Notes under the pieces: model-generated
Databases searched by the model: none
Seen by the model: only the letters and a program-made list of their open reading frames with translations
Told to the model about the DNA's origin: nothing
Position numbers and translations under genes: made by a program
Virus genome (UHGV): UHGV-0057427
Origin: a virus
Length of the DNA stretch: 11,130 nucleotides
Reading direction: 5' to 3' (one strand)
In this document: piece by piece, positions 757-10,741 of the stretch
How the letters are laid out: every line of letters begins with the position of its first letter
Numbering within the stretch: the stretch's first letter is position 1

Positions 757-1095
757 CTATTTCCCTGAATTTACGACGAAACTGTTCGAGCGGGCTGAAG
801 CACTCATGCTCATAGCCTTCGCGGAGGTAGATAACACGTTGTGTTTCCGGCTCCCAACGAATGACTCTGACGGGCACTCCGTAGTGATCTTTGAACCAGC
901 GGTTAACTTGTCGCAAAGGACTGTCTCCTTCTGCCGGTTGAAATCACCCACAGCCCACTCTGCAAAGCTGTGGGTTACAATTTCCCTGTCACCTGGTACA
1001 TTTACTGCATAGCAATACTCCACCTTCGCTTTTCCACCCGGTACAGGAAGCGCAATCAGTTGCGAGCGACGGTAGTGTGTTGTTAAACTGTTCAT
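757..1095 (-). CDS. Hypothetical protein (112 aa) between the CII-like and O-like genes
   Basis: ATG at 1095-1093 overlaps the TGA stop of the upstream CII-like ORF (ATGA coupling), same strand as the cro-cII-O operon. Composition is unremarkable and S/T-rich at the C-terminus; no motif recognised. An antisense plus-strand ORF (740-1012) also exists, so coding status is uncertain. Confidence 0.35.
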
Positions 1096-1655
1096 GCGTT
1101 AGTTTCTCCACAGTCACGACACGCCACGGCGCCCGGAGCTGCACACTCGCGGGCGTCATTACTTTCTGAAATGCAAAAAATTTTGTAGACCAGTGCTGCA
1201 TGCTCCTGCAGCTTCGAAATTGAGAGGTACAGCTCGTCGTTAATTGCTGTCTTCTCATGCGGTTCCACTACACCGTCTTCAATTGCTGAACGAATCTGTT
1301 TTGAATAACTGCCGATCTGTTCAATGACTTCCAGCAGGCGCTGGTTAATATCGGCGTTGTCCACATCCTCGACGTCAGGAAGAGACACAAAGACGCCATT
1401 TGCAGACTGCGCCACAGCATCAGCAATGAAGTGAGTGCCACCAGCACGCTGTAAAACCATTGCCCATCCCAGCGGGAAAATCTGATCGCCATCTGCACGA
1501 AGGCGGTTGAATAAAGCGTTTTCTGTTACATCGAGCCAATCAGCCGCTTCAGCGTAACCACCCGGCAACGCCGCGATAGTTTTTCTGACAGCTTTCACGT
1601 ACCACTCAGGCTGTTTTTCTATTTTCCAGTGATGCTTACCCACGATTAGCCTCAT
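1092..1655 (-). CDS. Phage regulatory protein at the CII position (CII-like/YdaT-like), 187 aa
   Basis: Intact ORF directly downstream of the cro-like gene and upstream of the replication gene, same strand, stop overlapping the next start. Assignment is positional; I cannot confirm family membership without an HMM search. Confidence 0.45.
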
Positions 1656-1686: not shown

Positions 1687-1887
1687 CTAATCTTTCGGAT
1701 AGATATCCGGTCTTAAGTCAGATTTCGTAATTGCACCTGACGTGCATTGCTCAAGTTTTTTAGCCAGCACAAAACTGGCTTTTTTATAGCCATTGAAAAC
1801 CAGCCGTAAGTAGCCAGGTGTTGAGCCAACTTTTCCGGCCAACTCGCCCTGCTGTTCTTTGGTTAAAGAGTCCCAATACGCTTTCAT
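1687..1887 (-). CDS. cro: Cro-like HTH transcriptional regulator (66 aa)
   Basis: The track ORF 1687-2190 has a long low-quality N-terminal extension; the internal ATG at 1887-1885 is preceded by GGAGGT at good spacing and gives MKAYWDSLTKEQQGELAGKVGSTPGYLRLVFNGYKKASFVLAKKLEQCTSGAITKSDLRPDIYPKD, a typical small Cro/YdaS-type HTH. It is divergent from the CI gene across an operator-containing intergenic region. Confidence 0.65.
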   Translation of the reverse strand: MKAYWDSLTKEQQGELAGKVGSTPGYLRLVFNGYKKASFVLAKKLEQCTSGAITKSDLRPDIYPKD

Positions 1888-1977
1888 ACAATATGTACCT
1901 CCGATGTACATATTACATGATTGAAATGAACCTTCAAGATACTTGTACCTTAACGGTACAAGGGTTTTAATTTCGTT
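1888..1977. promoter_or_regulatory. Divergent cI/cro promoter-operator region with two 21-bp palindromic operators (1892-1912 and 1942-1962)
   Basis: 1892-1912 TATGTAC-N7-GTACATA and 1942-1962 CTTGTACC-N5-GGTACAAG are perfect inverted repeats; both put two GTAC cores 11 bp apart (one helical turn). They lie between divergent repressor and cro-like genes, as OR does in lambda. Confidence 0.6.
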
Positions 1978-2652
1978 ATGAAAACAATCCATGACATCCG
2001 GCGGTCTAACGCCAGAAAACTGAGAGATGGTGTTGGCGGGAATTCTTCCTTTGCCACTATGATTGATCGCGAGCCAACCCAGACCAGCAGGTTTATGGGA
2101 GATGGTGCTACTAAAAATATCGGTGACAGCATGGCACGACACATAGAAAAATGTTTCGACCTGCCTGTCGGATGGCTCGATCAAGAACACCAGACAACGA
2201 ACATCACAAAAAAACCTGATGTTTCAATCACTAATAAACAAATCACATTAGTCCCTGTCATATCATGGGTACAGGCCGGAGCATGGAAAGAAGTTGGATA
2301 TTCTGAGGTTGATTTGAGCACAGCAGAAACGTATCCCTGCCCTGTACCCTGTGGGGAAATGACTTATATCTTGCGGGTGATAGGTGATTCAATGATTGAT
2401 GAGTACCGCCCGGGAGACATGATTTTTGTCGATCCTGAAGTACCTGCCTGCCACGGTGACGACGTTATTGCATTGATGCACGATACAGGTGAAACCACCT
2501 TCAAAAGGTTGATAGAAGATGGGACACAGCGTTATCTCAAAGCGTTAAACCCAAACTGGCCTGAGCCTTACATTAAGATCAACGGTAATTGCTCTATAAT
2601 TGGAACTGTGATTTTCTCAGGAAAACCAAGAAGATACAAAATCAAAGCTTAA
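1978..2652 (+). CDS. cI: CI-type phage repressor, N-terminal HTH plus C-terminal S24 (LexA-like) autopeptidase domain, 224 aa
   Basis: C-terminal half aligns by eye with lambda CI (TFKRLIEDGTQRYLKALNPNWPEPYIKINGNCSIIGTVI versus lambda [36 protein letters not shown]), with the GDSM serine motif and a downstream Lys. No SD precedes the ATG at 1978, consistent with a leaderless PRM-type transcript. Confidence 0.88.
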   Translation: MKTIHDIRRSNARKLRDGVGGNSSFATMIDREPTQTSRFMGDGATKNIGDSMARHIEKCFDLPVGWLDQEHQTTNITKKPDVSITNKQITLVPVISWVQAGAWKEVGYSEVDLSTAETYPCPVPCGEMTYILRVIGDSMIDEYRPGDMIFVDPEVPACHGDDVIALMHDTGETTFKRLIEDGTQRYLKALNPNWPEPYIKINGNCSIIGTVIFSGKPRRYKIKA

Positions 2653-2866: not shown

Positions 2867-3358
2867 CTACAGATTGCCGTTAAGTTTTCTGGACAACTCC
2901 TCAATGGATGGAGGCGATACGTAATCCGGATTTTTATTCATCAGAAACTTATTTTCACAGTGGAGGCACCTGCTTTTATGAAAAAGCTCATCTTCGCTAA
3001 CCGGGAATGGTTGAAGTATCGATACTATCTTTTGTCCAAAACATTTTGGGCAAAGATGCATGGTTATGCTGCCACCGTTCACGATTACCTCCTTCGAGTA
3101 TACAAAAGTACCCGACTCAAGTTGGTTAAGGATATAGCCTTCCGTCTGAGCCTCAAAGTTTTCGAATTCTGCAATTTTAGCTTTGAGAGAAGCATTTATT
3201 TCTTGATAAGAGCCCACCAGTTCAACGAGAGACACGCATTCGCGCTGAATAGACGCAAGCTTTGAGTTTAGCTCACCAATAGCCGCATTTACTTCAGCTT
3301 GAGTTTTTGCCTCGTTCATTAGTTTTGCAATCTGGGCTGTTTCACGAATAGCCGTCAT
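2867..3358 (-). CDS. Coiled-coil protein with C-terminal CxxC...CxxC zinc ribbon (163 aa), unknown function
   Basis: The track ORF 2867-3646 begins with a P/R/G-rich artefactual extension. ATG at 3358-3356 gives MTAIRETAQIAKLMNEAKTQAEVNAAIGELNSKLASIQRE... (heptad-like helical N-half) then HLCPKC-x27-CLHC. A terminator follows. SD is weak and a GTG at 3382 is an alternative start. It sits in the slot between repressor and early-left operon, on the opposite strand to both. Confidence 0.55.
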   Translation of the reverse strand: MTAIRETAQIAKLMNEAKTQAEVNAAIGELNSKLASIQRECVSLVELVGSYQEINASLKAKIAEFENFEAQTEGYILNQLESGTFVYSKEVIVNGGSITMHLCPKCFGQKIVSILQPFPVSEDELFHKSRCLHCENKFLMNKNPDYVSPPSIEELSRKLNGNL

Positions 3359-3851
3359 TGCTGCCGTTAATTCAGCGATCACATTGAATACTCTTATTGT
3401 TGTTGGGGATATCCAGATTAACCGAATCCTTGTTGTTGGGGAATAACCAGGTCCACCTCGCCTGATGTGGCTAAAAGCAGGCACATAACAGCTAAGTATT
3501 TTCAACCAGAGAGAATCCTTAGCGTTGTGGTGAATGCGGCTCAGCGCACGCGGGTTAAGGTTGAGGCTGACAGTCGACCTTCTGTGGATACCCACCCGCC
3601 CGGGGTGCAACCTTCGCCAGGCACCGGGAGGCACCCGGCACCACAACTTTATGCTGTGTGTAGTCCTGGCGGTACCAGCTTGTACCCTTGCTTCCGGCTG
3701 GTACCGTCCTTTTTACAAAACAGAGAAGAGCATCACCGGACGACGGGCTCATAACCCAATCCATCCGGGCGGCTGCCACCGCAGGTGTTCTTCTCTGTTT
3801 TGTGGAGAAACCAACCGACCTTGCAGGGTCGATATGATGAGGAGCAGCAAA
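3359..3851. promoter_or_regulatory. Long GC-rich structured noncoding region between the divergent zinc-ribbon gene and the early operon (direct repeats, terminator-like hairpin, 15-bp long-range inverted repeat)
   Basis: Direct repeats ATTGTTGTTGGGGATATCCAG (3396-3416) and CTTGTTGTTGGGGAATAACCAG (3429-3450), with a third degenerate copy near 3512-3533. Hairpin GGTACCAGC (3671-3679) / GCTGGTACC (3697-3705) followed by T5 (3710-3714). Perfect 15-bp inverted repeat ACAAAACAGAGAAGA (3715-3729) / TCTTCTCTGTTTTGT (3789-3803) enclosing 59 nt. ORFs here translate to low-complexity P/G/R-rich sequence. Confidence 0.5.
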
Positions 3852-4214
3852 ATGGCTAGCGAACGCAGTACTGATGTGCAGGCATTTATCGGGGAGCTGG
3901 ACGGCGGCGTATTTGAAACCAAAATCGGCGCAGTTCTCAGTGAAGTCGCTTCCGGTGTGATGAACACGAAAACCAAAGGGAAGGTCTCACTCAATCTGGA
4001 AATCGAACCGTTTGATGAGAACCGTGTGAAAATCAAACACAAACTCTCATATGTTCGCCCGACTAACCGCGGGAAAATTTCCGAAGAAGACACCACCGAA
4101 ACGCCGATGTATGTCAATCGCGGTGGTCGCCTGACTATTCTGCAGGAAGACTATGGACAAATACTGACTCTTGCCGGTGAACCTGACGGAAAACTACGCG
4201 CAGCAGGTCATTAA
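3852..4214 (+). CDS. Phage early protein, 120 aa (yfdP-like by position and size), unknown function
   Basis: The track ORF 3534-4214 is extended through the noncoding region; ATG at 3852 has GAGGAG 7 nt upstream and gives MASERSTDVQAFIGELDGGVFETKIGAVLSEVASGVMNTK.... It is the first gene of a co-directional operon. Confidence 0.55.
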   Translation: MASERSTDVQAFIGELDGGVFETKIGAVLSEVASGVMNTKTKGKVSLNLEIEPFDENRVKIKHKLSYVRPTNRGKISEEDTTETPMYVNRGGRLTILQEDYGQILTLAGEPDGKLRAAGH

Positions 4215-4279
4215 TATCGTTCTTAATAAACTGATTATTTATCTCATCACTGAATATCTTTATATAGTGAGGACTTATT

Positions 4280-5104
4280 ATGTCTCAGAACTTAGACGCA
4301 ACCGCAATTAATCAAATCCATGCCCTTATTTCTGCTCAGGGTGTTAATGAAATTATCAGTAAGATTGGTGCCGATGCTGTGGCATTGCCTGAGAATTTCC
4401 GCATTCATGATCTGGAAAAATTTAATTTAAATCGCTTCCGTTTCCGTGGTGCGCTTTCCACTGCCAGCATCGATGACTTTACCCGTTATTCTAAAGATCT
4501 TGCAGATGAAGGCACCCGCTGCTTTATCGATGCTGATAATATGCGTGCCGTCAGTGTGCTTAACCTGGGTACTATTGATGAACCAGGTCACGCAGATAAC
4601 ACCGCCACTCTCAAACTGAAAAAGACAGCACCGTTCTCTGCCCTGTTGTCTGTTAACGGCGAGCGTAACTCCCAGAAGTCACTGGCAGAATGGATTGAAG
4701 ACTGGGCCGACTACCTTGTGGGCTTTGATGCTAATGGTGACGCCATTCAGGCAACCAAAGCGGCTGCGGCGATCCGTAAAATCACAATTGAAGCGAACCA
4801 GACCGCTGATTTTGAAGATAATGACTTCAGCGGCAAACGCTCCCTGATGGAGTCTGTCGAAGCGAAGACCAAAGACATTATGCCAGTGGCATTTGAATTT
4901 AAATGCGTTCCGTTTGAAGGTCTGAAAGAACGTCCGTTTAAATTACGCCTCAGCATTATCACTGGCGATCGTCCTGTACTGGTACTACGCATTATTCAGC
5001 TGGAAGCAGTGCAGGAGGAAATGGCTAACGAATTTCGTGATCTGCTTGTTGAGAAGTTCAAAGACAGCAAAGTAGAAACCTTTATTGGTACTTTCACCGC
5101 CTGA
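4280..5104 (+). CDS. yfdQ: YfdQ-like prophage protein (274 aa)
   Basis: ATG with GAGGA SD; length equals my recollection of K-12 CPS-53 YfdQ (274 aa) and it is followed by an HD-domain protein of YfdR size. The assignment is by size and synteny, not by alignment. Confidence 0.6.
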
Positions 5105-5231
5105 TTTCATTACTGCAAATGCCCCTGCGGGGGCATTTATGGAAACGTAATTAACTCAATAATCACCGGATGGTGAGGGCATCCTTTTACCAGAATTCAG
5201 CGCGGTGCAGTGCATATACGTGGAGAACAAA

Positions 5232-5768
5232 ATGTCATTTATTAAAACTTTTTCCGGGAAGCATTTTTATTATGACAGGATAAATAAAGACAACATCGAT
5301 ATTAACGATATCGCGGTTTCCCTTTCAAATATCTGTCGCTTTGCAGGACATCTTTCACACTTCTACAGCGTCGCCCAACATGCGGTGCTTTGCAGCCAGC
5401 TGGTACCGCAGGAATTTGCTTTTGAAGCGTTAATGCATGATGCAACAGAAGCTTATTGTCAGGACATCCCCGCGCCACTGAAACGCCTTCTTCCTGACTA
5501 TAAACGGATGGAAGAAAAAATAGACGCCGTAATCCGTGAGAAATACGGGTTACCCCCGGTTATGAGTACACCCGTGAAATATGCCGATCTCATCATGCTG
5601 GCAACCGAACGCCGCGATCTCGGGCTTGATGATGGCTCTTTCTGGCCTGTACTGGAAGGCATCCCGGCAACAGAGATGTTCAACGTGATTCCACTGGCAC
5701 CGGGCCATGCCTACGGGATGTTTATGGAACGTTTTAACGAGTTATCGGAGTTACGCAAATGCGCATGA
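5232..5768 (+). CDS. yfdR: HD-domain phosphohydrolase, YfdR-like (178 aa)
   Basis: ATG at 5232 preceded by GGAGAA; protein contains H...HD motifs (AQHAVLCSQL...EALMHDATEAY) typical of HD-domain 5'-deoxynucleotidase-like proteins; length 178 aa matches my recollection of K-12 YfdR. The track start at 5205 lacks an SD. Confidence 0.7.
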   Translation: MSFIKTFSGKHFYYDRINKDNIDINDIAVSLSNICRFAGHLSHFYSVAQHAVLCSQLVPQEFAFEALMHDATEAYCQDIPAPLKRLLPDYKRMEEKIDAVIREKYGLPPVMSTPVKYADLIMLATERRDLGLDDGSFWPVLEGIPATEMFNVIPLAPGHAYGMFMERFNELSELRKCA

Positions 5769-6121
5769 ATGTTTTCGAAATGGAAGGGTTTCTTCGTGGG
5801 AGATGTGTACCGCGAGATCTCAAAGTGAATGAAACAGATGCTGAATACCTGGTGCGCAAATTCGATGCGCTTGAAGCTAAATGTGCGGCACTGGAAAACA
5901 AAATAATACCAGTGTCAGCTGAACTGCCACCAGCAAATGAAAGTGTTCTGTTATTTGATGCTAATGGAGAAGGCTGGCTGATTGGCTGGCGTTCTCTCTG
6001 GTACACCTGGGGACAAAAAGAAACCGGAGAATGGCAGTGGACATTTCAGGTCGGGGACCTTGAAAACGTCAATATCACTCACTGGGCAGTAATGCCAAAA
6101 GCACCGGAGGCTGGAGCATAA
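5759..6121 (+). CDS. Hypothetical prophage protein, 120 aa (yfdS-like by size and position)
   Basis: ATG at 5759 overlaps the yfdR-like stop by 10 nt, with GGAG 8 nt upstream; compact operon organisation. Confidence 0.5.
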   Translation: MRMNVFEMEGFLRGRCVPRDLKVNETDAEYLVRKFDALEAKCAALENKIIPVSAELPPANESVLLFDANGEGWLIGWRSLWYTWGQKETGEWQWTFQVGDLENVNITHWAVMPKAPEAGA

Positions 6122-6345
6122 TGACCACATTTACCAATAAAGAACTGATTAAAGAAATTAAAGAGCGTATCAGCAGCCTTGACGTGCGAGACGATATTGA
6201 GCGCCGTGCTTATGAAATCGCACTTGTATCTCTGGAAGTAGAGCCAGATGAACGCGAAGCCTATGAATTATTCATGGAAAAGCGTTTCGGTGACTTAGTA
6301 GATCGTCGGAAAGCAAAAAACGGCGATAACGAATACATGGCATGA
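6121..6345 (+). CDS. Small acidic hypothetical protein, 74 aa
   Basis: ATG overlaps the previous stop (TAATG); sequence MTTFTNKELIKEIKERISSLDVRDDIERRAYEIALVSLEVEPDEREAYELF is charged and helical with no recognised motif. Confidence 0.45.
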   Translation: MTTFTNKELIKEIKERISSLDVRDDIERRAYEIALVSLEVEPDEREAYELFMEKRFGDLVDRRKAKNGDNEYMA

Positions 6346-6425
6346 GATATGACTCTCAGCTGGGTTGTCTGTCAGCAACGCACTGGAATGAGTCTTTAAA
6401 CTGTACAACCGCTGGAGGGTCAGCA

Positions 6426-6620
6426 ATGAACAACTTAATGACAACTAAACAAGTCGCCGACTTCTGTGGCGTTTCAGTATCAACAGTACTTCGCTGGAAC
6501 AGCGTAAACAGGAGGACAGGCCAGAAATACAGGCCAGATTTTCCAGATCCTGATATTAAATCCTGCCCAAATAAATGGGCATCACGCAAGATTTATAGGT
6601 TTGCGGGAATTATTGAGTAA
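6426..6620 (+). CDS. Excisionase/AlpA-family HTH DNA-binding protein (64 aa)
   Basis: ATG at 6426 has GGAGGG 6 nt upstream. N-terminus MNNLMTTKQVADFCGVSVSTVLRW is the typical excisionase-family HTH (T-x-Q-V-A...G-V-S...T-V-x-R-W). It is the last gene of the early operon, near the integrase. The track start at 6342 adds an unlikely extension. Confidence 0.55.
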   Translation: MNNLMTTKQVADFCGVSVSTVLRWNSVNRRTGQKYRPDFPDPDIKSCPNKWASRKIYRFAGIIE

Positions 6621-6659: not shown

Positions 6660-6983
6660 ACAGAACCAAATCTAATCTGAGTGTCCACTTTGTGGTGTGA
6701 GTTCAACCGATGGATGCAACACACAGGCGGAAGCTGAATGCATACTCACCTTTGTATCCCAGCGTGCTGTAACAATGAACAACAACACTCTGGTGATTTG
6801 ACGAGTGCTTAAATTCTTTCAGTAACAATGTATTGTTAGTTTACATAGTTGTAAATAAATATAGTTTATTGTAACATTTTGCTTGCAATGTCATTTAAGC
6901 AACCTGCTTACTTTGAGGGCTTTGATGATAGATGAATCCTTACTAAAATTATCATTTTTATGTATTGATTGAAGAGAAGATTA

Positions 6984-8984
6984 ATGATAGATAAATCAAT
7001 TACTAACCCTGGTTTCCATAAGCAGTTTCTATTAGAAAGGTTCAATGCTGATGAACAAAAAATATTAAAGTTATTATCAAAAGGATGGTATTTAACTAAT
7101 TCTGGCGAGGAGTTACAAATTGCTCAATCCAGATATAATTATTTTCTGATGAAACCTACACCAAAAACCTCTGAAATGTTCAACATTGAGAGAGAGATTG
7201 TTTGTGTATTTAGTAACTACGATTATTTTGAACCAAGAACATTAGATTTTTTCGAACAAGTTTACATGCGTCTTCCAAAGATGCGCACAGAGATGGTTTG
7301 TGCTGTTCTAATTGGCAGAGCTCCTGATACAGAAGAAAAGGTTGAACAGCTTCTTAAAGCTGATCCAGAGCATCAAATCATTGTACCTGTTAGTTATACT
7401 GAAATGATGTGCACAGATGCACTTCGAACACTTGAAAATAGATTTAGAAAACATTTCTACTCTCGAGATTTATTCTCCTTTTTATCTCCACTTAAAAAAG
7501 ATACATACTTTTTTGGTCGTTCAAATCTTATCAATGAGATTGTAAATCGATTCCAATCTGGGGAGCACACTAGCCTTTTTGGTCTTAGGAAAAGCGGAAA
7601 AACATCGATTGTATATGCAATCCAGAGACGTTTAGAGGCAAAAGGAGATTGTTTTGTATCATTAGATTGCGAAAGCCCATCAATACATGGCCTTCGCTGG
7701 TATGAATTACTTGAGAAACTAGTATTATTATATCTAGAGGCAAAAAAATCTAAAGTTAAAATTAACACATCTGGTAGATATGATGTTAAGAATGCTGCAG
7801 AGAGCTTTGAAACAGATATATTAAAAATTTACAACTCAAAAAAAACAGCAAGTGCTATATTTATTTTCGATGAAATTGAAAGAATTACACCGACAACGGG
7901 AGCTTCGATTCACTGGAGAGAAGAAACCGATTTTATATACTTTTGGCAGACAATGCGCGGTTTTTACCAGAAACATCCGTCTGTTTTCTGTTATATGTTA
8001 GTTGGCACAAACCCAAGTTGTATAGAAACACCATCATTATTGGGGCATGACAATCCAATTTATGCTTCAATTCAAAGCCAATATGTTCCTCCTTTTACTG
8101 TTGATCAAGTTAGTCAAATGGTTACACGTTTAGGTGATTATATGGGATTAAAATTTGACAATTTGATCACTGCAAAACTGGCAGAAGACTATGGCGGACA
8201 TCCATTTTTAATTCGCCAAGCTTGCAGCCAAATTAACAAGCTAATCCCTTCAGATAGACCTGTAACAATTGATAAATCTCTATATAATAAGTCTAAGATC
8301 GAGTTTAGGAACAACTCTCAGGAGTATTTAGCAATGATGATTCAGGTATTGTCGGAATGGTATCCTGATGAGTACGAAATGCTATGTTTACTCGCTCAAG
8401 GGGATATGGATAGTTTCAATTCATTTGCTCAGGATCATACATCTTATACTCGACATTTAATTGGCTATGGGCTTATTCAAAAAGGCACATCTGGTTATTC
8501 CTTTAACCTTGAGGAAATTTCTGATTTGCTTAGAAAAAAACATCAACATGAAAGATTAAACCTGACAGATGAAGAAAAGGTTCAAGAGATTTCAATTAGA
8601 AGAAATCGCTTAGAAAAAGGTTTGCGGATACTTGTCAGGAACACATTAAAAATATATAAGGGTTCAAATAAAGCAAAAGATGCTGTTATTTCTGCAGTTC
8701 CTGATGGGCGAAAATCAACATTACAAAATTACGATTTATCCAAACTATTAGATCCTGATTCATCTCCATTATTCTTTCTCGAATTAATTAACATAATTAC
8801 GAGAGAGTGGGTGATTTTTGATAATGTTTTTGGGATTAATAAAGAAAAAATAAAAATTATGCTTGAGGAAATTAACACTAAAGGACGTCCAGATGCACAT
8901 GCAAAATGTATTGACGAAGATGATTTTCAGCAATTAAGGCTTTACTTCAAAAAGCTTGAGTTAATACTTCAAGAGTGGTTATAA
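6984..8984 (+). CDS. P-loop NTPase with STAND/ORC-Cdc6-type AAA+ motif order, unknown N- and C-terminal domains (666 aa); candidate defense cargo
   Basis: Walker A GLRKSGKTS (nt 7581-7607) preceded by FFGRSNLINEIVNRF, Walker B IFIFDE (nt 7860-7874), sensor-1-like MLVGTN, GxP-like YGGHPFLIRQ. Codon usage is visibly AT-rich compared with neighbours. First ATG at 6984 with purine-rich SD; track start 6969 is TTG. Stands alone between xis-like and int. Confidence 0.8.
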   Translation: MIDKSITNPGFHKQFLLERFNADEQKILKLLSKGWYLTNSGEELQIAQSRYNYFLMKPTPKTSEMFNIEREIVCVFSNYDYFEPRTLDFFEQVYMRLPKMRTEMVCAVLIGRAPDTEEKVEQLLKADPEHQIIVPVSYTEMMCTDALRTLENRFRKHFYSRDLFSFLSPLKKDTYFFGRSNLINEIVNRFQSGEHTSLFGLRKSGKTSIVYAIQRRLEAKGDCFVSLDCESPSIHGLRWYELLEKLVLLYLEAKKSKVKINTSGRYDVKNAAESFETDILKIYNSKKTASAIFIFDEIERITPTTGASIHWREETDFIYFWQTMRGFYQKHPSVFCYMLVGTNPSCIETPSLLGHDNPIYASIQSQYVPPFTVDQVSQMVTRLGDYMGLKFDNLITAKLAEDYGGHPFLIRQACSQINKLIPSDRPVTIDKSLYNKSKIEFRNNSQEYLAMMIQVLSEWYPDEYEMLCLLAQGDMDSFNSFAQDHTSYTRHLIGYGLIQKGTSGYSFNLEEISDLLRKKHQHERLNLTDEEKVQEISIRRNRLEKGLRILVRNTLKIYKGSNKAKDAVISAVPDGRKSTLQNYDLSKLLDPDSSPLFFLELINIITREWVIFDNVFGINKEKIKIMLEEINTKGRPDAHAKCIDEDDFQQLRLYFKKLELILQEWL

Positions 8985-9081: not shown

Positions 9082-10356
9082 TTATCGTTCAAAGCGGGCT
9101 GTCAGATTTGATTGAGTCCTACTAAGCAAACTATCAGTTGTGTCCGCACTAGTACAAGTAATGATCGATTCAACTCTCTCCCACCATGCCTGGTAGGCTT
9201 TACGCTGTTCTTCTAGATAATCGCTCTTGTCATAAACTTGCCATACCCCTGGCAGTTTATGACCTAGCATTATTTCTGCAATATGAGGCGCAGTAAGATC
9301 AGAAAAGTTTGTTCGTGCTGTTCGCCTCAAATCATGAAGAGACCAATGAGGGAATTGATACCCCAAACGCCGCCATGCGTACTGCATTAAATTGTAAGGC
9401 AGCGACTGCAATGATGTCCGACCAACGGGTTCCCTGCTTCCTTCCTTAGTAAAAAGCATATCGGAACCATTATTCATAGAAATAGCGTACTTTATAAGCT
9501 CTTCAACCGGTTCAATAATGGGCCGCTTTAGCGGTTCGCCCGTTATCTCCCCAGTCTTATGTCGTTCTGGTGGTACAGTCCATACTTTATTAATGAAATC
9601 AAAATCGTCCACCCTGGCGGTAATTAGCTCTGAACTACGGCAGCCAAAATGCAGCAATAGTTTAATGAAGGCCCGGTATTTAGGAACCATTCGAGAACCA
9701 TCGATCGCAGCATAAAGGATTTTAATTTCATCATGTGTCAGAAACCGTTTCTTCTGACCTTTACGGATATCCATATCTTTACCCGTGATATCCGACAACG
9801 GGCGAGTTTCAATGAGCTTTCTCTTATACGCCCAGACATGGGCCTGCTTTGCGTTAATTAGCAATCGGTCTGCTATTGCTGGAGTCTTAGTGCTAAGAGG
9901 CTCCAGGACTTCTAACCAATCATGCAATGTAGCTGCATCGTGAGGGATATTCCCGATTTTAGAGAACAGGTGCAGCTCAAACGAGCGGAGTATCTGTTCA
10001 GAACCTTTTTTATTTTTTACACAATATGCTTCATACCAGGCACGGATCACAGACTCTACCGTCATGGCTTCAGTAGCTTTTCGTTTTTCAGCCTGCTTGA
10101 CCAATCGTGGATTACGGTTTGACTCGAGTTCACCACGGAGACGGGTAACTTCTTCTCTGGCCTCTTTTAATCCAGTTGCCGGGTAAGTTCCGATATCAAG
10201 ACGCTCACCTTTCCCTGCCCATTGATAACGATATTGGAACACTACGCGACCTTTCGGTGATACTCTGACAGACAGACCATCACGATCGGATTTAACCAAA
10301 ACCTTATCACGTTCCTTTCCAACGACTGAACGCAACCACGCATCAGACAGCGCCAT
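9082..10356 (-). CDS. int: Phage integrase, tyrosine recombinase (424 aa)
   Basis: N-terminal arm-binding-type region (GLSVRVSPKGRVVFQYRYQWAGKGERLDIGTYPATGLKEAREE), C-terminal catalytic signatures HDLRRTART and conserved Tyr region (LGHKLPGVWQVYDKSDY). It lies adjacent to the host junction. Confidence 0.9.
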   Translation of the reverse strand: MALSDAWLRSVVGKERDKVLVKSDRDGLSVRVSPKGRVVFQYRYQWAGKGERLDIGTYPATGLKEAREEVTRLRGELESNRNPRLVKQAEKRKATEAMTVESVIRAWYEAYCVKNKKGSEQILRSFELHLFSKIGNIPHDAATLHDWLEVLEPLSTKTPAIADRLLINAKQAHVWAYKRKLIETRPLSDITGKDMDIRKGQKKRFLTHDEIKILYAAIDGSRMVPKYRAFIKLLLHFGCRSSELITARVDDFDFINKVWTVPPERHKTGEITGEPLKRPIIEPVEELIKYAISMNNGSDMLFTKEGSREPVGRTSLQSLPYNLMQYAWRRLGYQFPHWSLHDLRRTARTNFSDLTAPHIAEIMLGHKLPGVWQVYDKSDYLEEQRKAYQAWWERVESIITCTSADTTDSLLSRTQSNLTARFER

Positions 10357-10585
10357 TACTCACCTTGTACAAATCGCAAAACACCTCTGCTGCTTTGTAC
10401 ATTATGTACAAGAATATGTACAGATTTTTGATGAAAGCAAGCTGATCGATTTAAAGTTACATGAAAGAATCTTCAATTAAAGAAGCCACATAACTAAATG
10501 TATTTAAATGAGTTATATAGCTCAACCTCAATTAACTGAAAGGATTTTGAAAGAGTAAAAGAGCTTTAATTTGGGCTTAATTATT
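10357..10585. promoter_or_regulatory. attL phage arm / integrase upstream region with clustered TGTACA motifs
   Basis: AT-rich; TTGTACAA (10365-10372), TTTGTACATTATGTACAAG (10394-10412), ATGTACAG (10416-10423) share the GTAC core of the cI/cro operators. The region ends where the prfC reading frame begins to match the host. Confidence 0.45.
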
Positions 10586-10651
10586 GGGGTGAGAAATAAT
10601 GGCAAAAGTGCGGCGCTTCGCCACCTCTTGCAAATAAGGAGACAACGTCAT
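10586..10651 (-). pseudogene. prfC: prfC 5' fragment (first 22 codons of peptide chain release factor 3) interrupted by the prophage
   Basis: Minus-strand ATG at 10651-10649 translates to [22 protein letters not shown], which matches my recollection of the E. coli RF3 N-terminus, then NN-stop where host sequence would continue DAGKTT. A 90-bp spacer separates it from the yjjG stop. Confidence 0.6.
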
Positions 10652-10741
10652 AATTCTTTCTTCTTGAGTAAGCGGCATCGCGCCGCGCTTGTTGAAAACG
10701 AAAAATTGCGGCTATTTTACCCATCAACGGGGGGGAGGCAA

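Follow-up and report, generated by a model that had tools for sequence, protein, structure and literature searches.

Short sequences with a GTAC core recur at four places in this prophage DNA, namely in the spacer between cro and cI, behind cI, in a hairpin ahead of the early-left operon and directly upstream of int, and their recurrence raises the question of whether one repressor acts on all of them. The original prediction favoured such a shared repressor, with operators reused in all four places, and offered as a fallback that the sites beside int are integrase arm-type sites sharing the core by chance. We found every sequence element that it described in place in the window (the whole stretch of DNA analysed, 11,130 nt). 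Comparison of the clusters with those of related phages indicated, with a probability that we put at roughly 85%, that they belong to three independent modules of a mosaic phage: operators at the early promoters, an RNA hairpin, and integrase arm sites. One repressor family reused at four places, int included, was not borne out, as the clusters track different modules. All three features are ordinary prophage features of well-known kinds.

Based on open reading frames, Pfam matches and similarity searches, the window reads as the int-side end of a lambdoid prophage that has integrated into the 5' end of prfC. In window coordinates it carries an O-like replication gene that contains an array of 15-bp iterons (375-438), a YmfM-like ORF (757-1095, minus strand), a cII-like gene (1092-1655, minus strand), the cro-cI immunity region, a reverse-strand ORF of 168 aa (2867-3373), a structured stretch of RNA (3494-3850) downstream of PL and ahead of the first early-left gene (ATG at 3852), and the early-left operon itself (3852-6620), composed of yfdP/Q/R/S/T-like genes and a small HTH excisionase-like gene that is a candidate recombination directionality factor (RDF; 6426-6620). 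A STAND-like ATPase of 671 aa (6969-8984) and the tyrosine integrase gene int (9082-10356, minus strand) follow, and beyond int lie the att region and then host genes, a prfC 5' remnant and yjjG. The array at 375-438 consists of about four copies of the 15-bp unit CAGATTTTGACGGGT, which are probably origin iterons.

The immunity region is of the e14 type. The cI repressor gene (1978-2652, plus strand) encodes a protein 100% identical to E. coli K-12 e14 YmfK, called the SOS-sensitive e14 repressor in literature listings, with an N-terminal DNA-binding region weakly matching a phage repressor (PDB 5d50, E=0.0018) and a C-terminal S24 LexA-like autocleavage domain (Peptidase_S24, 92.8 bits) that matches the C-terminal domain of lambda cI (E=1.9e-9). 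The cro gene (1687-1887, minus strand) encodes a YmfT/CroE-type protein of 66 aa that is identical to K-12 e14 YmfT at 65 of 66 residues and has weak HTH_3/YdaS matches in Pfam. Within the literature searched, listings for YmfK and YmfT carried no operator data, and no binding study turned up for the proteins or sites described here.

Between the two genes, we infer a best PR candidate on the minus strand, TTGAAG(1937-1932)-N16-TAATAT(1915-1910), and a weak PRM candidate, TGTACC(1944)-N18-TAATTT(1973). The -10 element of the latter lies 5 nt before the cI ATG at 1978, and no Shine-Dalgarno sequence precedes that ATG, which together suggest a leaderless mRNA; the cI message is thus probably leaderless, as in lambda. 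Behind cI, an intrinsic terminator on the plus strand (2664-2690, GAACCTGCTTCGGCAGGTTT followed by a T-run), annotated in the SfV and Ayreon records, is followed by a PL-like promoter on the same strand (2692-2719, TTGACA-N16-CATAAT). This candidate matches the consensus at 11/12 positions, the best in the scanned region, is invariant in the six aligned phages and carries a promoter annotation in the Ayreon record. We saw no N-like gene after it.

To evaluate the operators, we derived a weight matrix for the half-site from the strong dyads and used it, with the dyad geometry fixed at 21 bp, to scan the window, a scan in which shuffled sequences gave maxima of 10.0 ± 2.4 bits with a highest value of 16.4 bits. 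The operator takes the form of a 17-bp dyad, TGTACC-N5-GGTACA, with GTAC cores 11 bp apart. The top score in the window, 22.5 bits, was obtained for operator A (OR1-like, 1892-1912, TATGTACC-TCCGA-TGTACATA), which reads TATGTAC-CTCCGAT-GTACATA, lies over the -10 element and start region of the PR candidate and holds the cro Shine-Dalgarno sequence (GGAGG, minus strand) inside its spacer. Operator B (OR3-like, 1942-1962, CTTGTACC-TTAAC-GGTACAAG) scored 20.8 bits and overlaps the -35 and spacer of the weak PRM candidate. Between them, a tentative operator M (OR2-like, 1925-1945, AATGAACC-TTCAA-GATACTTG) scored 12.7-16.3 bits, borderline against the shuffles; it overlaps the PR -35 and abuts site B. 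Site M is nearly invariant in all six aligned phages, a conservation that could equally stem from the PR -35.

The same dyad recurs at PL, where GTAC stands at 2700 and 2720, inside or at the promoter. Operator OL1 (2697-2717, AATGTACC-TTTGA-GATACATA), at 22.3 bits, fills the spacer between the PL -35 and -10, and a weaker, borderline OL2 (2717-2737, AATGTACC-CAAGA-GAAACAAC, 11.6 bits) covers the edge of the -10 and the start region at a conserved position. The promoter behind cI had thus been rightly assigned to the operator family, but the direct-repeat units proposed for it gave way to the two dyads as the real units. Shuffled sequence also reaches the scores of M and OL2, and these two sites may be conserved as parts of promoters and not as targets of the repressor. 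Operators are spaced centre to centre by 33 and 17 bp at OR and by 20 bp at OL. Half-site matches at 2341, 6827 and 7380 (9.2-9.6 bits) were rejected as operators, being in the shuffle range and inside genes or AT-rich DNA.

We aligned OR and OL with those of e14, Ayreon, SfV, Hafnia phage yong2 (73% identity) and Edwardsiella phage EPP-1 (70%). The half-sites TGTACC and (G/A)TACA are invariant or nearly so at all five operator positions in the six phages, and the 11-bp core spacing is kept in all five operators of all six, while the central N5 spacers drift. Site B illustrates this pattern: TGTACC and GGTAC are invariant and the spacer is TTAAC, TTATC, CTATC, AACGC or AATTT across the relatives. 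The half-sites of A are kept in all five relatives, and in EPP-1 both OL operators form better dyads than in the window, OL1 with a perfect GGTACA right half and OL2 as AATGTACT-TATAA-GATACACG. The operators co-vary with the repressor type, being kept down to about 70% identity in the six phages with a YmfK-type repressor; in loci with a PhiR63-type repressor the cI spacer carries TTGCG..GCAA repeats and no GTAC dyads. These sequence comparisons support the assignment of A, B and M together with OL1 and OL2 to one operator family for the cI/Cro pair. The two cro/cI dyads were therefore correctly predicted as operators, with one geometry, promoter overlap and half-sites conserved to about 70% identity. 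This part of the prediction is not new in kind, because the equivalent of about 1893-1961 is already labelled a "putative operator region" in the SfV entry in GenBank.

A dimer of the YmfK-type cI would recognise these 17-bp dyads, and the YmfT-type Cro presumably likewise. At OR, site A would block the PR -10 and start region, M would lie over the PR -35, and B over the PRM -35 and spacer; at OL, the two adjacent dyads would occupy the strong PL-like promoter, which points into the early-left (yfdP/Q/R/S/T-xis) operon. With operators over both promoters, repressor occupancy would shut PR and PL in the lysogen, and RecA-stimulated self-cleavage of the S24 domain would relieve this repression.

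This arrangement resembles lambda in its divergent cI and cro, in several dyads over PR and PRM with a second set at a PL-type promoter after cI, in the S24 autocleavage repressor and in the probable leaderless cI mRNA. Unlike in lambda OR/OL, the operator sequence is unrelated and the spacing between operators differs, two rather than three OL sites are evident, and no N gene is visible after PL. Closest in kind are the immunity regions of e14 (ymfK/cohE - ymfT/croE), SfV and SfIV; from e14 the OR spacer of the window differs at one base and the OL region not at all. In comparison with e14, SfV and SfIV, the immunity region is here joined to a prfC integration module instead of one for icd or tRNA-Thr, extra genes lie between PL and the early-left operon, and the half-site definition and OL dyads given here are not annotated in those records.

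One such extra gene is the 168-aa reverse-strand ORF, which lies between PL and the early-left operon, is convergent with PL and has its own terminator (2809-2828). Its product is coiled-coil-like in the N-terminal half and carries CxxC...CxxC motifs in the C-terminal part; the ORF is absent or different in e14, Ayreon and PhiR63_1. In Hafnia phage yong2, a tRNA-Gly(CCC) gene (2582-2655 of that locus) downstream of PL takes the position held in the window by this ORF and the small-RNA-like element described below.

The hairpin ahead of the early-left operon (3668-3714, plus strand) has a 13-bp stem, 3668-3680 paired with 3696-3708, followed by CUUUUU. GGTACC at 3671 and 3700 lies in the two arms and TTGTACC at 3680-3686 in the loop, and the GTACs of the stem are there because they pair with each other. 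With a G+C-rich stem directly before a U-run, the structure has the pattern of an intrinsic (Rho-independent) terminator, a predicted function; it escaped a simple terminator scan limited to loops of 3-8, probably on account of its 15-nt loop. Folding of the RNA at 3655-3855 gave -88.3 kcal/mol (z=-5.2).

The hairpin closes a match to a known prophage small RNA. An Rfam scan of the full window at E<=1 returned a sub-threshold match to STnc100 (RF02076) at 3494-3717 on the plus strand, which covers the full model length at 35.0 bits (E=1.1e-4), and two microRNA families. The microRNA matches fall on the iterons (375-438) and on a hairpin within the int gene, and we discount both as spurious. 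As 35.0 bits falls short of the gathering score of 47, the element resembles the STnc100 family without being filed as a member. The match includes the conserved CACCGGGAGGCACCCGGCACCA block, and the alignment places the GGTACC stem on the STnc100 terminator stem, although the stem sequence of the window differs from the consensus. STnc100/PasD have been described as prophage-borne sRNAs (bioRxiv 10.64898/2026.05.13.724894).

The stem is kept in more than 70 loci, including those with the unrelated PhiR63-type repressor, and its variants are compatible with G-U pairing (GGTATCAG; C to T at 3679). Two genomes that encode the identical repressor do not keep the loop sequence TTGTACC: in e14 it is replaced, and in locus L023 it is mutated. 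As a DNA operator the hairpin scored 2.4 bits on the dyad scan. The proposal that the repressor also binds here was consequently abandoned, given a stem that persists as RNA beside heterologous repressors and a loop GTAC that is lost where the repressor is the same. Instead, the hairpin reads as the terminator-like 3' end of an STnc100/PasD-like RNA, and would at the same time open the structured leader that precedes the early-left genes. Behind it, another long hairpin (3715-3807, AAAACAGAGAAGA...TCTTCTCTGTTTT) likewise has a U-run at its end, and homology in many related loci starts exactly at 3667. Two U-run hairpins ahead of the early-left operon and no N-like gene suggest that read-through into the operon needs some antitermination or processing mechanism.

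Upstream of int, whose start codon is at 10356 on the minus strand, four sites with the consensus ATGTACAA lie at 10365-10372, 10395-10402 (inverted), 10404-10411 and 10416-10423, with GTAC at 10367, 10397, 10406 and 10418. Taken singly, these sites score 8-10 bits on the operator half-site matrix, equal to genuine operator half-sites. Weak recognition of them by cI monomers is conceivable from the sequence, though very unlikely. Their cores are spaced by 30, 9 and 12 bp, never by 11, and the best operator dyad upstream of int scored 0.5 bits, whereas the strong operators reach 20.8-22.5. At its N-terminus the integrase carries an Arm-DNA-bind_3 domain (PF13356, residues 3-90, 61.4 bits vs a cut-off of 27), followed by Phage_int_M and Phage_integrase (64.7 bits) domains, and is 95-99% identical to the integrases of Ayreon, cdtI, 2H10, PhiR63_1 and Stx1a/Stx2c phages. 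In the phage collection the integrase identities jump from 95% to 41%, with no intermediate homologues for covariation between arm motif and N-domain.

We located the att core as 14 bp on the minus strand (10587-10600, ATTATTTCTCACCC) inside the first codons of prfC. It is annotated as "duplication due to insertion" at both ends of the Stx1a phage LC727891 and likewise as the insertion duplication in Stx2c phage records, and homology to the free phage Ayreon ends at it. The intact attP of Ayreon carries TGTACA on the int side at 11423, 11453, 11462 and 11474 and beyond the core at 11726, 11738, 11766, 11835 and 11881; the extended motif ATGTACAA is present in both orientations and on both attP arms. 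Four TGTACA copies each were counted in the attR regions of PhiR63_1, of a Stx1a phage and of the prophage in E. coli F1053, which shares 97% identity with the window. Among 80 IMG/VR loci with this integrase, 26 include DNA upstream of int, and all 26 have the four TGTACA copies across at least three repressor types (10 with YmfK-type cI, 11 with the unrelated PhiR63-type cI and 2 with a third type). Conversely, e14 and SfIV, with the same repressor and other integrases, showed no TGTACA array in the stretches examined.

Because the int-side sites are kept with any repressor, are missing, in the stretches examined, from phages with the same repressor and another integrase, and never show the 11-bp spacing, they are best read as arm-type sites of the prfC-specific integrase. 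The fallback of the original prediction thus matches the comparative data, and control of int by the repressor falls with the dyad score of 0.5 bits and with sites unchanged beside heterologous repressors. The ATGTAC shared by the operator half-site (ATGTACC) and the arm site is most likely a coincidence. The N-terminal Arm-DNA-binding domain of Int would bind the four P'-arm sites in the window, and four or five more P-arm sites would lie at the far end of the prophage. As in lambda (P1, P2, P'1-3), a short non-core motif stands on both attP arms and Int has a dedicated N-terminal arm-binding domain; unlike in lambda, the motif is ATGTACAA, in eight or nine copies, and the P' sites lie against the int start codon.

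How far the clusters might be products of chance or composition depends on the motif counted. Bare GTAC is a weak marker, with 44 copies (about one in every 256 bases of the window) vs 23 expected from dinucleotide shuffles, and its frequency is what speaks for chance, together with the hairpin. There, a single stem accounts for two of the three GTACs, one per arm, and GTAC is self-complementary, so that this cluster has no statistical weight. Against chance, GTAC-N7-GTAC occurs twice, both times in the 90-bp cro-cI spacer, with 0.04 expected from shuffles, and four of the six TGTACA copies in the window fall within 57 bp directly upstream of int, where just 109 of 2000 shuffles placed two or more TGTACA within 60 bp; position-specific conservation in divergent relatives points the same way. 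Chance is refuted for the OR, OL and int clusters and stands solely for the GTAC of the hairpin loop; as an account of the clusters as a whole we give it almost no credence. The expectation of clusters conserved and above background accordingly held for OR, OL and int, which are non-random and conserved, and not for the loop.

A single regulon, in which the TGTACA sites at int and possibly the hairpin DNA are further targets of the YmfK-type cI or of Cro, so that int expression or excision is repressed together with immunity and the early-left operon, would draw on the ATGTAC that the arm sites share with the operator half-site, on their half-site scores and on their position over the int 5'UTR and a candidate promoter. 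We consider it very unlikely, since the core spacings and the dyad score at int are not those of an operator, the four sites persist in the 11 loci with an unrelated repressor and the 2 with a third type, e14 and SfIV lack the array in the stretches examined despite having the same repressor, and more copies stand on the far attP arm, where there is nothing to repress; the hairpin stem, too, is kept beside heterologous repressors and its loop GTAC is dispensable. A narrower form, confined to recombinant prophages that unite an e14-type repressor with the prfC integrase, in which cI or Cro weakly binds the paired arm sites with cores 12 bp apart (10406/10418) via ATGTAC, appears from the sequences just as improbable. 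If true, it would tie int expression, or assembly of the intasome, to the immunity state, and the cross-talk would be an accidental product of module shuffling. Somewhat less remote, though still improbable, is that the TGTACA repeats are sites of the RDF, the small HTH protein encoded at 6426-6620, rather than of the Int N-domain. The comparative data do not separate the two because RDF and int travel in one module, which is also a point in favour of the RDF. However, a motif in eight or nine copies on both arms and in both orientations is the pattern of Int arm sites, the RDF sites characterised so far (those of lambda Xis and TorI) lie on one arm only, and the integrase has a well-scoring arm-binding domain that needs such sites. 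A 20-nt direct repeat between the arm sites and the core is, moreover, available as an RDF or IHF candidate.

Returning to the reading as integrase arm sites, int would have a promoter of its own within attL and be read in the direction away from att, and the arm sites would therefore overlap the int promoter and 5'UTR. The first arm site is 9 bp from the int ATG, the P' sites are 165-235 bp from the core, and the arm sites overlap the 5'UTR and the candidate int promoters. These candidates, at 10401-10440, are weak (7/12 consensus), and a standard scan found none. By analogy with KplE1 intS, where arm sites within attL mediate negative int autoregulation (Panis et al. 2010, PMC2951348), the arm sites here probably mediate negative autoregulation of int. 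As in KplE1 (CPS-53), int adjoins attL in a fitting orientation and is uncoupled from the RDF gene; a promoter of its own in the recombination region, overlapped by arm-type sites, would be a further common trait and is here weakly predicted. Unlike KplE1, the integrase is in a class of about 30% identity to it, the target is the prfC 5' end instead of tRNA argW, and the arm motif is another.

These results matter mainly for annotation and leave the understanding of such systems unchanged. They provide an operator definition, TGTACC-N5-GGTACA with three OR and two OL sites, for the e14/SfV/SfIV/cdtI immunity group, to which a K-12 cryptic prophage, Shigella phages that convert serotype and Stx2c phages belong, and an arm motif (ATGTACAA) and core (ATTATTTCTCACCC) for prfC-integrating phages, Stx1a and Stx2c converters among them. 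They also advise caution, in that a hexamer common to parts of a mosaic prophage does not amount to a common regulator, a matter that module-swap comparisons decide cheaply.

Several further observations concern the att region and its surroundings. Between the arm sites and the core lie the 20-nt direct repeat, TTACATGAAAGAATCTTCAA / TTAACTGAAAGGATTTTGAA at 10457-10476 / 10532-10551, with its copies 75 bp apart and also present in Ayreon, and a 12-bp inverted repeat at 10484-10522, both of them candidate RDF or IHF sites. The phage integrates within the first prfC codons and brings its own replacement 5' end, which restores the gene at attR; this integration pattern was read from 10587-10660 of the window, at the ends of two further loci (L005 and L006) and at 8150-8240 of the F1053 locus. 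The displaced native prfC 5' fragment and its promoter candidate (10714-10741) remain beside yjjG at the int end.

The ATPase at 6969-8984 is STAND/AAA-like, with Pfam and PADLOC matches all below cut-off, and neither search gave a confident family for it or for the 168-aa reverse-strand ORF. It occupies a slot between the excisionase-like gene and int that is filled in near-identical prophages by a dGTPase, a CHAT protein, a dCTP deaminase, Dsr1, an HNH nuclease or an AIPR protein, and this slot has the look of a variable hotspot for anti-phage defence. At the far end of the F1053 prophage (9052-11457 of that locus), just inside attR, genes for a reverse-transcriptase-domain protein and a TIR-domain protein with an IS1 between them may constitute a disrupted retron-like defence system.
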